A stretch of 64,000 nucleotides of DNA, from the NCBI GenBank assembly GCA_035545015.1, contig DASZZD010000016.1, positions 13,102 to 77,101 of the forward strand. The letters are read 5' to 3'. Shown one piece after another: positions 11,039 to 15,390 of this stretch. This DNA comes from Phycisphaerae bacterium. GTDB lineage: Bacteria > Planctomycetota > Phycisphaerae > WQYP01. A program made the translations under genes and the position numbers. The notes below the pieces were generated by a model, which worked only from the letters and a program-made list of their open reading frames with translations, was not told the DNA's origin and searched no databases. Each line of letters starts with the position of its first letter. Within the stretch, counting starts at the first letter, position 1.

Positions 11039-14000
11039 TCAGCCCTGGAGTTCCGCGAGGTTTTTCTCGACGGCGCCGAGTTCTTCTTCCTGCCTGGCGA
11101 GTTGATCGCGCAGGCCGCGCAGGACAGCCGCGGGGGCTTTGGCGACGAAAGATTCGTTGCCCAGCTTGTTGCGGTTGCCGGTGATGTGCTTGAGGAGCTG
11201 GTCGCGTAGCTTGGCGAGCTTGGCGGCTTCCGCGGCTTTGTCGATGACGCCGCCGATGAAGATTTGTACGTCCGGCAGGACGCGGGCGGCGGCATCGGGG
11301 GGCTTGGCGGCGTCGAGGGCGTTTTGCGCGATGGGCGAACCGGTGAGGGACTCGATCACGGTGCGCGACTGGTCGATGGCCTGCTGCGTGGCGGCGTTGC
11401 GCGGGGCGAGCACCACCGCTTTGCCCTTGGCGGCGGGATAGCTGTTCTGGATGTCGCGAATCTGGCTGGTGATGGATTGAATGATGGCGATCTGCGCCTC
11501 GGCGGCCGAGTCGGCGGCTCGGGCGTCGGCGATGGGCCAGGCAGCGGTGACCAGCAGCGAGGTGCGGTTGGGCAGCTTGCTCCAGAGTTCCTCGGTGATG
11601 AAGGGCATGACGGGGTGGAGCAGCTTGAGCGACGTTTCCAGGCAGTGCAGCAGGATCGATTGCACCGTGGAATCGCCCGCGCGGATGCGGGCCTTGGCGA
11701 TTTCGAGGTACCAGTCGCAGAGGTCCGTCCAGAAGAAGGCGTAGAGGGCGGTGGCGACTTCCGCAAAGTGGAAGGCGTTGATCGAGGATTCGACGGTGGC
11801 GATGGTGGCGGCGAGACGTGAGAGAATCCAGCGGTCTTCCAGATGCTGAGTGCTCACGACCGAGGACGAAATACCGAGGGAAGGGGTGTCTTCGGCGAGG
11901 TTGGAGAGGATGAAGCGGCTAGCGTTCCAGATTTTGTTGGCGAAGTTGCGGCCGATGTCGAATTTCGGCGAGGTGTTGGCGCCGGTTTTGGCGTCTTTGA
12001 CCACGGGCATGCGGATGTCCTGGGTTTCGGTGGCCATCTGCGCGAGCGTGAAGCGCAGGGCGTCGGCGCCGTGGGAGTTGATGATGTCGACGGGATCGAC
12101 GCCGTTGCCTTTGGATTTGGACATGGTGCGGCCTTCGCCGTCCTGGATGACGGCGTGGACGTAGACGTCGCGGAAGGGGACATCGCCTTTGCAGTAGAGG
12201 CCGAACATGACCATGCGGGCGACCCAGAGGGTGAGGATGTCGCGCGCGGTGGAGAGGAGGGAGGTGGGGTAGAAGGTGTGCAGCAGTTGGTCGTCGGGGC
12301 TGTCGGAGGTGCCGGTGGCGGGCCAGCCCATGGTGGAGATTGGCCAGAGGGCGGAGGAGAACCAGGTGTCGAGGACGTCGGGGTCCTGCTGATAACCAAG
12401 CTTTTCTAGGTCACGCTCCTTATCCGGATTACCGGGTGCAACGGCAGTCCAGAGATACCAATTCCCTGCATCGTCGCGAAGTGCTCGAGTCCACGAGTGC
12501 CACTGATCCGTAGGACTTTTGCTTGTTCCGTAATGCACGTCTCCGCGACGGACTCCTTCCGCTGCTTGCACGCCCCAATTCGGAATATTGGTTTCAATAA
12601 ACCATTTATCGTTCTCTGTGGCAGGGCCATGCCACACGGGGATGCGATGCCCCCACCAGAGTTGGCGGGAGATGCACCAGTCGCGTTTTTGGCCGAGCCA
12701 GTCGAGGTAGCCTTTGGCGTAGCGGTCGGGGGTGATTTTGACACGGCCATCGGTGACGGCGTCCATGGCGGCCTGCGCGAGGCCGGAGGCGCGCTCGCCA
12801 TTGGCGAGGGTAATCCCAACCCCATCAGAGCCGCGACCGTGAGGGAGCGGTTGCAGCGAAGCGGCAAATTGCTCTCGATCGAGGTAAGCGCCGCTGAGAT
12901 TTTCCCCTTGCTTGTGCAGCGTATAATCCGCGGCTCCGGCAATGTCCTCTTCCTTCCAGAGGTAGGGCGTCGACCCGTGACGACTCCAGACCTTTGCATC
13001 CGCGGAGACCAATTCTGCTTCGCGCAAGCGGCGGGTGGCATACGACTTGAAATCGTTCATCATCTTCTCGGGGGAAGCGTCTCCCGAAACCACGGCATGT
13101 ACGTGGGTGGAACGCACATTGACCGCGTGGATCATCCATCCTCGGTGCTTTGCCACTTCTACCATTGTTTGGCAGATGGTTTGGCGTTGTTGTTCGGACA
13201 AGACCACGGGAGCACTTTTGGCGTTGGCCATTTCGCGTGCGAACAGCTCTGGATCGGGTGCGACGAAAGGTGTTCCGTAGTCGTTGTGATCGGCATCGAC
13301 GGAACCTGGTTCTTCGCCGCGGAGCCAGGTCGCGTAGGTGTGGAAGGTCAGGAAATAGGCGAGGGCGTTGGCGGAGGAAGGGTGTGCGCCCGGAGATTGC
13401 TCACGCAAACCGCTTCCTGACGGGCGCGGCTCTGATGGGGACGGCTCCATGATGTCGCCCATGCGGACGAACCATTGGTCGCTCAGGTAGGGTTCAATGG
13501 GCGTTTTGCTGCGGTCGCTGTGGCCGACTTCGTGTTCGTGCGGTTTCACCTCGGCGATGAGGCCGAGGGCTTCGAGGTCGGCGAGCACCGCCTTGCGCGC
13601 GGCGCTGGCGAATTTCAGGCCCGCATAAGAGTATTGCTTGCCCAAAAAGACTCCTGACCCCTTTTCGTTGACTTTGCCGTCGGGGGTGAGCAGGTTGATC
13701 TGTTCGAGGTGGTGGCGGACGCCGGTCGCGTAGTCGTTGGGATCGTGGGCGGGCGTGACTTTCACGACGCCGGTGCCGAAGGAAGGATCGACCAGCAGGC
13801 CGTCGGTGATGATGGGAATTCTGCGGCCCACCAGCGGCACGATCACGTGCTTGCCGTGGAGATGCGTGTAGCGTTCATCGTCGGGATGCACGGCCACGGC
13901 GGTGTCGCCGAGCATGGTCTCGGGGCGGGTGGTGGCGACGATCAGGTATTCGTCCGGCGAACCATCGACGGGATATTTGATCGAGGTCATCTGTCCTTTG

Positions 14001-14599
14001 ACGGTCTCGTGATAAATCTCATCGTCGGCGACGGCGGTTTGCAGGTGCGTGTCCCAGTTGACCAGGCGTTTGCCGCGGAAAATGAGGCCGTCTTTGAACA
14101 TTTTGAAGAAGGCTTCGCGCACGGCGCGGGCGCAGATGTCGTCCAGCGTGAAGCGCGTGCGGTCCCAGTCGCAGGAGGCGCCGATGGACTGAAGCTGCGA
14201 GAGGATGCGCGTGCCGAACTGTTCCTTCCATTCCCAGATGCGACGCACGAGTTCCTCGCGGCCCAGATCGTGGCGCGACTTGTTCTCCTTCTCAAAAATC
14301 GTCTTCTCCACGACCGCCTGCGTGGCGATGCCCGCGTGATCGATCCCCGGCATCCACAGCGTGTTGTCGCCCTTCATCCGGTGATAGCGCGTGAGAATGT
14401 CCTGAATCGTCCCGTTGATCGCATGGCCCAGGTGCAGCGCCCCGGTGACATTCGGCGGCGGAATCACGATCGAAAACGCCTTGCGCGCATCACCCTCTCC
14501 CCCAGCGACCGCATGAAAGACACGCGCCTCCAGCCACCGCTGATAGACGGGCTTTTCCACACTTTTGGGATCGTACTGCGGGGGGAGATCAATCTTCAC
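11039..14599 (-). CDS. valS: Valine--tRNA ligase carrying an in-frame HUH transposase insertion
   Basis: PPPNVTGALHLGH, ATTRPETMLGD, DWCISRQLWWGHRIP, DPDVLDTWFSS, TMSKS, C-terminal coiled coil; GTG start after AGAGGA. Confidence 0.96.
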   Translation of the reverse strand: MKIDLPPQYDPKSVEKPVYQRWLEARVFHAVAGGEGDARKAFSIVIPPPNVTGALHLGHAINGTIQDILTRYHRMKGDNTLWMPGIDHAGIATQAVVEKTIFEKENKSRHDLGREELVRRIWEWKEQFGTRILSQLQSIGASCDWDRTRFTLDDICARAVREAFFKMFKDGLIFRGKRLVNWDTHLQTAVADDEIYHETVKGQMTSIKYPVDGSPDEYLIVATTRPETMLGDTAVAVHPDDERYTHLHGKHVIVPLVGRRIPIITDGLLVDPSFGTGVVKVTPAHDPNDYATGVRHHLEQINLLTPDGKVNEKGSGVFLGKQYSYAGLKFASAARKAVLADLEALGLIAEVKPHEHEVGHSDRSKTPIEPYLSDQWFVRMGDIMEPSPSEPRPSGSGLREQSPGAHPSSANALAYFLTFHTYATWLRGEEPGSVDADHNDYGTPFVAPDPELFAREMANAKSAPVVLSEQQRQTICQTMVEVAKHRGWMIHAVNVRSTHVHAVVSGDASPEKMMNDFKSYATRRLREAELVSADAKVWSRHGSTPYLWKEEDIAGAADYTLHKQGENLSGAYLDREQFAASLQPLPHGRGSDGVGITLANGERASGLAQAAMDAVTDGRVKITPDRYAKGYLDWLGQKRDWCISRQLWWGHRIPVWHGPATENDKWFIETNIPNWGVQAAEGVRRGDVHYGTSKSPTDQWHSWTRALRDDAGNWYLWTAVAPGNPDKERDLEKLGYQQDPDVLDTWFSSALWPISTMGWPATGTSDSPDDQLLHTFYPTSLLSTARDILTLWVARMVMFGLYCKGDVPFRDVYVHAVIQDGEGRTMSKSKGNGVDPVDIINSHGADALRFTLAQMATETQDIRMPVVKDAKTGANTSPKFDIGRNFANKIWNASRFILSNLAEDTPSLGISSSVVSTQHLEDRWILSRLAATIATVESSINAFHFAEVATALYAFFWTDLCDWYLEIAKARIRAGDSTVQSILLHCLETSLKLLHPVMPFITEELWSKLPNRTSLLVTAAWPIADARAADSAAEAQIAIIQSITSQIRDIQNSYPAAKGKAVVLAPRNAATQQAIDQSRTVIESLTGSPIAQNALDAAKPPDAAARVLPDVQIFIGGVIDKAAEAAKLAKLRDQLLKHITGNRNKLGNESFVAKAPAAVLRGLRDQLARQEEELGAVEKNLAELQG
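12820..13440 (-). mobile_element. RAYT/IS200-like Y1 (HUH) transposase flanked by 33-bp inverted repeats, in frame within valS
   Basis: YFLTFHTYATWLRG, STHVH (HUH), FKSYATRRL, VWSRHGS, DY; IRs at 12820-12852 and 13408-13440 match at 30/33. Confidence 0.85.
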
Positions 14600-14618
14600 G
14601 GGGTCCTCTGCCTTATTG

Positions 14619-15110
14619 TTATCGCGGCTTGCACGGAATGATCCCCGGCACCGCATCAAAATCGTCGTCGTTGGTAATGAGATACTGAATCTGTTCCCGC
14701 TGCATCAATGCCACATGCGACGCGTCATCCGTGAGCAGTCGATGCCGGGATGCCACCTGTGCCGTCTTTTCAAGGTCGTTCGCGTCCATTGAAAGGACCG
14801 TGAGCGGCCACCGCCTCAGCGCTTTCGCCGCGGCGTGGTATCCCGAAAGAGTTGGAATAATCTCCGGCCGCCGCTGAACGTACGCCAATGGCTTCATCGT
14901 TTGATAGCGCGTGTGCACTTCCGACAACATCACACGATGCAACGTCTCAGACAGCACTGCCGGGCTGACGAAGCCGGCTACGTCGCCGTTTTCCATCCGC
15001 CTGACAAAAGCTTCGCTTGGCGCAGAGAACGTTGGATTCTGCGTAAAGTTGTAGACCAGGATGTTCGCGTCGACAAAGCACCGCGCGCCCGAAGGCGGTT
15101 CAGGCGTCAT
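14619..15110 (-). CDS. PIN-domain (VapC-like) toxin
   Basis: FVDANILVY, VLSE, LLTDDASHVA, LITNDDDFD acidic PIN motifs. Confidence 0.9.
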   Translation of the reverse strand: MTPEPPSGARCFVDANILVYNFTQNPTFSAPSEAFVRRMENGDVAGFVSPAVLSETLHRVMLSEVHTRYQTMKPLAYVQRRPEIIPTLSGYHAAAKALRRWPLTVLSMDANDLEKTAQVASRHRLLTDDASHVALMQREQIQYLITNDDDFDAVPGIIPCKPR

Positions 15111-15390
15111 CTTCTCCCTCCCCGAATCGGTCATACCCCGGCGACCGCGCGATTTTGTCTCCGATCTCCGGACCGACCGGCAACCTGTGGCGGGCCCACC
15201 AATCGATCAGCGCAGCGCCGTCCTCGGGCATCGGATCGTTCGGATCGTCGAACCGTGGCATCTCGACGGCCGGCCTTTGGGCTTCCGGACTGTCCACCGT
15301 TACCGTCAATTCCAGGTCCGCGGGAAGCTCCAGCTTCTCATGGGGCACCAGTACGCCATTGGCAAAATGTGCTCGAAAACGCCGCGTCAT
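15100..15390 (-). CDS. DUF104/AF2212-like antitoxin
   Basis: RAHFANGVLVPHEKLELP; overlaps PIN gene start. Confidence 0.8.
   Translation of the reverse strand: MTRRFRAHFANGVLVPHEKLELPADLELTVTVDSPEAQRPAVEMPRFDDPNDPMPEDGAALIDWWARHRLPVGPEIGDKIARSPGYDRFGEGEDDA

Follow-up and report, generated by a model that had tools for sequence, protein, structure and literature searches.

A complete Y1/HUH transposon unit lies in frame within the valyl-tRNA synthetase gene of a Phycisphaerae bacterium

The 64,000-nucleotide stretch of DNA analysed here (the window: contig DASZZD010000016.1, positions 13,102 to 77,101, of Phycisphaerae bacterium assembly GCA_035545015.1) carries on its minus strand one uninterrupted open reading frame (ORF) for valyl-tRNA synthetase (ValRS), the product of valS, in which a Y1/HUH nuclease domain bounded by inverted repeats is interposed between the N-terminal and C-terminal parts of the enzyme (Table 1). 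The source genome, designated G000, is a metagenome bin of 104 contigs totalling 4.86 Mb and is 94.6% complete. NCBIfam profiles confirmed the identity of the host gene as valine--tRNA ligase (NF004349, 1046.8 bits against a cut-off of 704; TIGR00422, 954.5 bits against a cut-off of 612.1), and the matches to both profiles fell into two stretches broken near residue 406, at the insert. The corresponding product appears in the protein collection as a protein of 1186 amino acids (aa; P0151), so the start of valS may lie 20 codons downstream of the TTG from which the frame was counted.

This split profile match bears out the original prediction that ValRS carries extra residues between the motifs QWFVRM and LAQAAMDAV, although the predicted number of about 220 required revision: the stretch from QWFVRM to GLAQAA occupies 711 nucleotides (nt) as against 84 nt in the nearest empty allele, that of the congener G003, a difference equivalent to 209 residues. 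When residues 365-416 of the ValRS of Thermus thermophilus (1gax) were aligned with the window protein the match resumed at GLAQAAM, and the sequence at the insertion point was seen to be merely ...RM-RP-LAEE.... Within the source genome, the only locus to score above the TIGR00422 cut-off was the valS of the window; weaker matches on contigs C100 and C44 fell below it, and a further candidate for a second valS, on contig C93, was rejected as an isoleucyl-tRNA synthetase (IleRS) on the basis of TIGR00392 (816 bits as against 621). The check for a second valS thus returned none in a genome of this completeness.

A search of window positions 12600-13700 for inverted repeats returned a single pair (12820-12852 and 13408-13440, 555 nt apart), the 33-nt arms of which are complementary at 30 of the 33 positions (91%) and are read, as had been predicted, SEPRPSGSG and PLPHGRGSD. 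The span from one outer end to the other (12820-13440) amounts to 621 bp, or exactly 207 codons, and was confirmed in the ORF list to be free of stop codons and in the frame of valS. The insert is in sense orientation just after the QWFVRMGD strand of ValRS, and no ATG (Met) codon was found ahead of the Y1 domain within it. A CAGA foot is present at both ends of the element (..ATCAGA-GCCGCG..), immediately before GCCGCGACCGTnAGGGAGCGGT, and is replaced by CGGA in some of the genomic copies of the repeat; no GTAG foot was found at the element ends. Single repeat units folded no better than shuffled sequences (z -0.8 to +0.4); a doublet of two inverted units, such as that present in ileS, formed a strong hairpin (-37 kcal/mol, z -6.95). 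The description of the flanks as repetitive extragenic palindromic (REP) palindromes did not survive these results, the single unit being no better a hairpin than shuffled sequence, and the ends are accordingly taken to act as terminal inverted repeats rather than as REP hairpins.

Table 1. Features of the valS locus and of related repeat units in the source genome (window coordinates unless a contig is given)
Feature	Position	Strand or locus	Basis or remark
valS open frame, 1206 codons from TTG	11039..14659	minus	ORF list and NCBIfam profiles
ValRS N-terminal part (Rossmann fold and editing domain), ending ...SDQWFVRMGDIMEPS	13441..14659	minus	Pfam tRNA-synt_1 (residues 38-405); first stretch of valS profile match (28-406); alignment with relatives
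Upstream terminal inverted repeat, read (P)SEPRPSGSG(L), CAGA foot first	13408..13440	minus	24-nt core 2 positions off genome consensus
Y1/HUH nuclease core, insert residues 25-180	12902..13369	minus	Pfam Y1_Tnp, AlphaFold model, Foldseek, conserved columns
HVH (H113-V-H115)	13097-13105	minus	
Candidate catalytic Tyr173 (AADYTL)	12923-12925	minus	alignment only
Gln178	12908-12910	minus	
Downstream terminal inverted repeat, read (Q)PLPHGRGSD(G)	12820..12852	minus	24-nt core identical to genome consensus
ValRS C-terminal part: GVGITLANG...GLAQAAMDAV, DWCISRQ, KMSKS, anticodon-binding domain, C-terminal arm	11039..12819	minus	Pfam Anticodon_1 and Val_tRNA-synt_C
ileS in-frame doublet, SEPRPSGSG-RALAGQ-PLPHGRGSD	G000:C93:6764-6838	L004/L092	about 10 residues past the QWFV strand
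In-frame unit, aminotransferase	C4:18498	L030	
In-frame unit, oxidoreductase	C7:34303	L018	
In-frame unit, methylase	C32:126594	L023	
In-frame unit, symporter	C89:13626-13697	L025	
Unit at N-terminal edge of Dus frame	C11:68614	L022	

The protein sequence encoded between the repeats contains all of the motifs originally quoted for it (YFLTFHTYATWLRG, THVH, FKSYATRRL and AADYTL), and was matched by the Pfam family Y1_Tnp (PF01797) at 28.6 bits within the whole ValRS and 31.5 bits within a 247-aa piece, against a cut-off of 23. When the 207-residue insert was searched against 1.84 billion representative proteins, 2439 relatives were recorded at E<=0.001 and 134 at E<=1e-30, most of them proteins of 160-230 aa. 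Alignment with 59 free-standing relatives (60 rows) established H113, H115, K132 and S157 as invariant, and Y173, Q178 and 13 other positions as at least 90% conserved. An AlphaFold2 model of the insert generated from the same alignment had a mean predicted local distance difference test (pLDDT) score of 87.7 and a predicted template modelling (pTM) score of 0.82; residues 1-17, which comprise the upstream repeat peptide, scored below 50, and Y173 was located within a predicted helix (164-176). Comparison of the model with the PDB using Foldseek gave as the best match 4er8_A, the REP-associated tyrosine transposase (RAYT) of E. coli on a REP hairpin (E 1.5e-5), and all matches ranked 1-30 were RAYT, IS200, ISDra2 or IS608 chains (E 1.5e-5 to 2e-3; target template modelling scores 0.5-0.7). 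A profile search of PDB sequences returned only IS200-family transposases, the best being 2f4f (E 0.0012).

Assignment to a particular group of Y1 enzymes was less straightforward. Scores against the NCBIfam profiles for RAYTs (NF047646, 27.7 and 30.2 bits) and for IS200/IS605 transposases (NF033573, 27.8 and 30.7 bits) lay below the respective cut-offs of 80 and 55, and the predicted Y1/RAYT-like character was consequently upheld as regards the Y1/HUH fold and not as regards RAYTs proper, a nearer affinity being with class 3 TnpA-Y1. Class 3, as defined in the survey of Quentin, Siguier, Chandler and Fichant (2018, PMC6006769), comprises enzymes of about 178 aa with HVH and Y----Q motifs and an extended conserved N-terminus, for which a 155-aa profile and the consensus motifs NHVH, W[TA] and YV[VI][AENY]EQ are given; its members are known from Planctomycetes, Acidobacteria and Proteobacteria, and on either side of their genes are repeat units of weak structure which begin with a 5' CnGA foot and can be dispersed in the genome. 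The consensus of the 60 relatives of the insert reads ...RTNHVH..., W.RHGST and YV...QG, preceded by a conserved N-terminal stretch, AYF[LI]TF.TYGTWL.G..GSVD; the window copy itself has THVH, WSRHG and YTLHKQ, and the copy in the congener G002 has NHVH. The insert therefore shares with class 3 the HVH and Y----Q motifs, the N-terminal core, units with a CnGA foot and dispersed copies, while differing in the THVH and W-S of the window copy from the NHVH and W[TA] of the consensus (PMC6006769). By these motifs and flanks the enzyme fits class 3 more closely than the classical RAYTs, an assignment made by motif match rather than with the hidden Markov model of the authors of PMC6006769. The insert as a whole is a complete Y1/HUH single-stranded DNA (ssDNA) transposon unit, consisting of a nuclease gene and two inverted end repeats.

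The genome-wide count of the repeat which the original prediction had proposed returned 29 copies of its 24-nt core at up to four mismatches, as against none for a reversed-pattern control, and the repeat is accordingly no product of chance. Fourteen of these copies were of the type present in valS (type 1) and 15 of a second type, GAGACGCGACCGTGAGGGAGCGTT, which shows 2-3 fixed differences from the valS type (e.g. C28:68471, C51:36682 and C94:134777). One class-3 gene, that in valS, was present in the source genome (1 match among 13 candidates); other PF01797 loci are present, none of them near any listed unit. Type-1 units were located in frame within genes for IleRS, a GFO/IDH/MocA oxidoreductase, an MmeI-type methylase, an SSF symporter and a class-III aminotransferase, the identities of all five being confirmed with Pfam or NCBIfam; the symporter unit, like that of ileS, is a doublet, and a Dus frame has one further unit at its N-terminal edge. 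The ileS doublet occupies the loop homologous to the valS insertion point, and its orientation and reading frames are those of the valS repeats. This IleRS loop is hypervariable, measuring 59-95 residues between flanking motifs at the nine loci where the motif was found, and among those relatives the doublet was present in the source genome alone. No conserved target motif outside the units was visible by eye in 13 aligned copies. Several singlets directly precede runs of 9-14 G, which are translated as runs of Gly. A variant core, GAGCCGCGCCCGTnAGGAAGCGGT, in which the changes A9C and G18A co-occur, was recorded in the left repeat of the window element and in both repeats of two other elements (L082 and L083), and its recurrence in elements of different hosts suggests, at the level of sequence, the existence of two end-repeat subtypes.

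To establish the distribution of the insert among close relatives, 21 ValRS loci of the same family-level group were aligned. The Y1 insert was present in two of these, those of the source genome and of its congener G002; a third (G014) carries a repeat doublet at the same insertion point, two (G001 and G017) have 13-16 unrelated extra residues there, and the remaining 16, the congener G003 among them, have a short loop of the form GD-xxx-GITLADG. Empty alleles thus exist in sister species, the Y1 insert being absent from two congeners (G001 and G003) and from 16 other members of the family. A ValRS tree constructed without the insert columns had the topology ((G000,G003)100,(G002,G001)93)97, in which the values of 100 and 97 are starred, and in combination with the pattern of presence this requires that a single loop underwent two changes, both of them gains or both of them losses. 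In the ValRS of G002 (L035) a further in-frame doublet, PSEPRPSGSDPVAANPDGSLPHGRGSD, was observed before ...LLQTFYPT (alignment residues ~815-845), and an extra forward unit lies within the downstream flank of its Y1 element. Separately, residues ~700-790 of the enzyme, between HRIPVW and DPDVLDTWFSS (window ~12300-12560), could not be aligned between G000 and G002, the flanks being 80-90% identical; from this comparison of sequences the enzyme has here a second region of variable insertion. Directly upstream of valS (window 14619-15390, minus strand) lie two small ORFs of 171 and 96 aa, the first of which overlaps the 5' end of the valS frame, and which by eye look like a toxin-antitoxin pair.

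The junctions were checked against contigs, rather than reads, assembled from public runs over window positions 12400-13900. In an independent study (X5) record 9 (12581-12856) and record 10 (12828-13472) cross the two junctions with no differences, and records 2 and 4 of a second study (X2) likewise cross both without a difference, which indicates that the arrangement is not an assembly artefact. An empty allele resembling that of G003 is also contained in X2, and in X6 there is a diverged relative whose insert is about as long. One X2 contig that skips from 12787 to 13455, with 40 other letters between, was examined as a candidate excision product and rejected as a G003-like sister allele, there being four differences in 87 nt.

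Comparison of the two filled alleles gave a ratio of nonsynonymous to synonymous substitution rates (dN/dS) of 0.15 for the Y1 core (155 codons, 68% identical), similar in size to the 0.13 of the N-terminal ValRS flank (386 codons, 85% identical) and below the 0.34-0.43 of the C-terminal ValRS segments, all of these being rough ratios since dS in the Y1 core is high (1.45). On the evidence of these sequences the Y1 domain is under purifying selection, and is being kept rather than decaying. Catalytic residues were similarly retained, H113, H115, Y173 and Q178 all being present in 20 of 21 embedded copies, with the single exception of P0035 (H115Q). The end repeats were conserved in a different manner. 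In all seven embedded elements for which DNA was available the domain is preceded by a core in forward orientation and followed by one in reverse (0-3 mismatches), although the proteins are only 44-62% identical; around free-standing loci units were recognisable within 500 nt in four of nine cases, including one from a gammaproteobacterial bin (1 mismatch). In 41 of 53 embedded proteins the downstream unit is translated as LPxGRGS. For the upstream unit, examined in 49 proteins, translation follows frame 3 (SRDRxGA) in 21, frame 2 (EPRPSGS) in 16 and frame 1 in two, with none seen in nine. A unit kept across different reading frames is conserved as a nucleotide sequence, and such conservation would be expected of nuclease recognition sites and not of linker peptides.

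Embedding of this kind is not confined to ValRS. Among 60 genomes of relatives the domain was located within long open frames in four, namely the ValRS of G002 and proteins of the DUF1156 family in G016, G013 and G031. These DUF1156 hosts (L036, L038 and L039) represent three genera, and in each the Y1 domain is at one site, after ...LCKKDRKRVLL; they also have long in-frame arrays of repeat peptides, with tandem GRGSDI-like repeats on both sides of the domain and at a second upstream site. Of the best 150 representatives from the protein search, 21 extend past the domain by 100 residues or more, and Pfam analysis of 18 of the long ones identified seven alanyl-tRNA synthetases (AlaRS), three ValRS, one AddB, one HrpA-like helicase and one lactonase, the other five having no additional family above the Pfam cut-off. 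A search restricted by length (E<=1e-10), which favours close relatives of the query, returned 38 long proteins comprising 27 ValRS, five AlaRS and six others, these last being Eco57I, MmeI and N6_N4 methylases, a Type ISP enzyme, GlnE and DUF7008 proteins. The related loci come from Phycisphaerae and Planctomycetota bins, and a cluster look-up of ten ValRS and AlaRS carriers returned metagenome bins only. In a sample of 300 genomes of the phylum that were at least 90% complete, matches at E<=1e-15 were recorded in 30, and of the 48 matches outside the source genome only two are in frames of more than 1000 aa; embedding is thus a minority state of a mostly free-standing family.

Within the synthetases the same few positions recur. 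Of 30 ValRS proteins that could be placed, 11 carry the domain directly after QWFVRMGD (site A) and 19 after the next helix, LAGAALRAM (site B), one truncated protein being left unplaced; AlaRS also has two insertion sites. One AlaRS (P0155; 1481 aa, on one JGI contig of 10.4 kb) contains complete Y1 domains in two loops, at residues 311-497 and 692-888. These two copies are 74% identical and form, with the site-2 copy P0141, a clade with starred support of 100, but are only 52-57% identical to the other site-1 copies, relationships from which it follows that an embedded copy gave rise to a second embedded copy, and that two element lineages entered AlaRS site 1. In a FastTree phylogeny of 148 domains (10 partial rows dropped) the label 'embedded' requires at least nine changes as against a mean of 19.9 for shuffled labels, and the starred branches force only two. 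The site-A ValRS inserts form one clade (99, starred), within which the identities of hosts and inserts are weakly coupled (rho 0.20 over 55 pairs), and host and insert trees conflict at two supported nodes (P0151/P0156 and P0159), one of which involves a partial protein, the supports being those of the quick Shimodaira-Hasegawa-like approximate likelihood ratio test (SH-aLRT). Such weak coupling, as read from sequence identities, hints at replacement or re-invasion at site A.

Several known systems resemble this arrangement in part. Two components of it are already in print: class-3 Y1 genes whose flanking units have a CnGA foot (PMC6006769), and REPs that lie in frame within genes (PMC3733652). 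The class-3 members described in the former are free-standing, however, whereas the unit considered here forms part of a frame of 1206 codons, is free of stops and has no Met before its domain, and the same survey set aside 'unexpectedly long proteins' as fusions or annotation errors. According to Di Nocera et al. (2013, PMC3733652), REP units or dimers occur in frame in functional genes, including those for tRNA synthetases and repair proteins, where they contribute 20-30 extra residues. The ileS and other in-frame units of the source genome are of the same kind as these intragenic REPs and as Rickettsia palindromic elements; the difference is that the inserts described there contain no enzyme, while in valS a complete nuclease gene lies between the repeats and is read through. 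The ends of the present element, as terminal inverted repeats, also recall the 'TIRtrons' of the same publication (PMC3733652). Full-text searches of the literature found no Y1 transposon unit read through in host proteins, most subscription journals and the supplements in which such cases may be listed (PMC6006769 Table S1 and PMC3733652 Additional file 3) having been beyond reach.

Likeness to RAYT/TnpA-REP systems extends to the presence of one nuclease gene per genome, to inverted copies of a dispersed repeat as singlets and hairpin doublets, and to 4er8 as the best structural match; against it stand the sub-threshold NCBIfam score, the missing GTAG foot, a single unit that is not a hairpin, and a tyrosine motif that is not YxxxNP. 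With the IS200/IS605 family (IS608, ISDra2) the insert has in common the HUH plus Tyr fold and a Y...Q motif related to that of class 1, but its ends are inverted repeats rather than asymmetric subterminal hairpins, its NCBIfam IS200 score does not exceed 30.7 bits as against 55, no tnpB is present, and the number of autonomous copies is low. IS200/IS605 elements move by 'peel and paste', that is by seamless excision and insertion at a short target, a process that would fit the patchy distribution of filled and empty alleles. Inteins offer a further parallel as selfish nuclease-coding elements in frame in conserved, essential, nucleic-acid-handling enzymes at sites that recur across lineages; the present element differs in that no Hint domain or splicing motif was found, so that it would remain in the protein, and in encoding a Y1 ssDNA transposase rather than a LAGLIDADG or HNH nuclease. 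In IStrons, which combine a group I intron with an IS200/IS605-type transposon (PMC4227781), insertions into genes are likewise made harmless, there by self-splicing of RNA; no ribozyme was detected here with Rfam, and harmlessness would come instead from translation as a loop domain.

The reading that best accommodates the empty sister alleles, the dispersed repeats, the unrelated hosts and the doubled AlaRS insertion is that originally put forward, namely that a mobile element lives within a surface loop of ValRS by being translated with it, in the manner of an intein but without splicing, and this is judged moderately probable. A class-3 unit landed in a surface loop of variable length, in the sense orientation and without disturbing the frame. 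As it contains no stop, and no ATG precedes the domain, the unit is presumably translated together with ValRS, which presumably stays functional because only this valS was found. The repeat-encoded peptides may act as flexible linkers, as the low pLDDT of the model would suggest. No other class-3 enzyme having been found in the genome, the embedded nuclease is the likeliest agent for cutting and joining the repeat units at the CnGA foot. On the model of TnpA-REP and of 'peel and paste' by IS200/IS605 elements, the domain, presumably kept in catalytically competent form, would cut and join single-stranded units at that foot, moving or copying singlets and doublets and occasionally itself, while selection would retain only in-frame copies within tolerant loops, which would explain why most of the surviving units are intragenic.

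A number of observations weigh against this interpretation. The presence of a single Y1 copy means that there has been no recent burst of an autonomous element, and the other Y1 genes (PF01797) of the source genome could be those acting on the units; the genome being 94.6% complete, a second valS or a free class-3 gene could also be unassembled. No same-strain empty joint was present in the contigs over the locus, which cannot show rare excised forms, and no RNA run was listed with the valS locus. Near-invariant Gly37 is Ala in both G000 and G002, and, the roughness of the dN/dS ratios apart, purifying selection could act on foldability alone, protecting ValRS. IS200/IS605 transposases act as dimers, and a domain tethered inside a 130-kDa enzyme might fail to dimerise. 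Frames of more than 1000 aa account for only two of 48 phylum-sample matches outside the source genome, both of them in the class to which the window belongs. Finally, no class-3 protein is known to have been shown to act as a nuclease, and PMC6006769 states that the origin and behaviour of class 3 need experiments.

Some of these same points would be accounted for if the insert were an inert passenger, a single tolerated in-frame insertion that is now a bulky loop, its fold being kept for the sake of ValRS and its nuclease no longer acting. The solitary copy, the lack of a same-strain excision joint in contigs, the change of Gly37 and the rarity of embedding in the phylum sample are all as such a passenger would have them, and the loop plainly accepts unrelated insertions, as in G001 and G017 and in the hypervariable loop of IleRS. 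It is nonetheless considered rather unlikely, in that the catalytic His, His, Tyr and Gln together with 15 more family-conserved positions are kept in nearly all embedded copies, the end repeats, which code only for linkers, are conserved as DNA across reading frames, two related copies occupy one AlaRS, and identical unit cores are present elsewhere in the genome. A domesticated ssDNA- or RNA-binding domain, which the original prediction had offered as an alternative, would make of the Y1 fold a binding or regulatory module co-opted to the benefit of ValRS and other nucleic-acid enzymes. Purifying selection as strong as that on ValRS, the many ValRS clusters with the insert (27 of the 38 long proteins, at two sites) and a range of hosts most of which handle nucleic acids (aminoacyl-tRNA synthetases, AddB, a helicase and methylases) would all suit a module of that type; it is, however, disfavoured by absence from sister species and by the number of hosts, which include a lactonase, GlnE and a DUF1156 protein. 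As the site-A identities of host and insert are decoupled and their trees conflict at supported nodes, and as a binding module needs neither conserved terminal repeats nor an intact catalytic Tyr, domestication is held to be improbable.

Removal of the insert before the mature enzyme is formed, whether by splicing or processing of RNA through the inverted repeats or by splicing or cleavage of the protein, has in its favour that pairing of the two 33-nt arms in the mRNA could draw the flanks close to each other, and that inteins occupy similar niches. Rfam gave no match at E<=1 on either strand of window positions 12300-14000, however, and no Hint or intein family was among the seven Pfam families (E<=0.01) on the whole protein, in agreement with the original remark that no intein termini were visible; the frame and protein sequence of the insert are, moreover, conserved in a way that an intron would not need, and removal is accordingly thought very improbable. 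Least credible of all, and scarcely to be entertained, is a chimera arising in assembly of the metagenome bin: the bin is in 104 contigs and repeats do break assemblies, but both junctions are crossed by independent contigs in two studies with no differences, and the same architecture recurs in 26 further ValRS clusters (JGI, NCBI and ENA) on contigs of up to 3.05 Mb.

The interpretation of the insert as a mobile element living by translational fusion can be carried further, in a proposal regarded as possible with the balance of judgement against it, namely that a class-3 Y1 lineage has specialised in living inside large enzymes, most of which handle nucleic acids, and that the fusion enzyme is an active nuclease, a DNA-transposon counterpart of inteins that does without splicing. 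Elements with neither stop nor start of their own would be expressed by host ribosomes; their deletion would be barred, since imprecise loss would kill the cell; the same few loops, two in ValRS and two in AlaRS, would be re-used across lineages in a manner resembling homing; and the elements would scatter repeat units, in frame, among the proteins of the cell.

A transposon is expected to remain between genes or else to disrupt any gene that it enters, and the known means of inhabiting an essential gene, inteins and self-splicing introns, both remove themselves. Here a complete HUH/Y1 unit appears instead to persist through translation as a loop domain of an essential enzyme, and the same solution recurs in ValRS, AlaRS, AddB, helicases, GlnE and DNA methylases. 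Surveys that discard transposase matches as annotation errors because they are 'too long' will miss this embedded class. HUH domains are in use as covalent DNA tags, and were the fused nuclease active it would constitute a natural sequence-specific ssDNA-binding HUH module working as an internal fusion, and would provide a practical handle on the little-studied class-3 Y1 enzymes. An active fusion would, in addition, represent a new strategy for expressing and keeping selfish DNA, and a source of new protein loops and domains.

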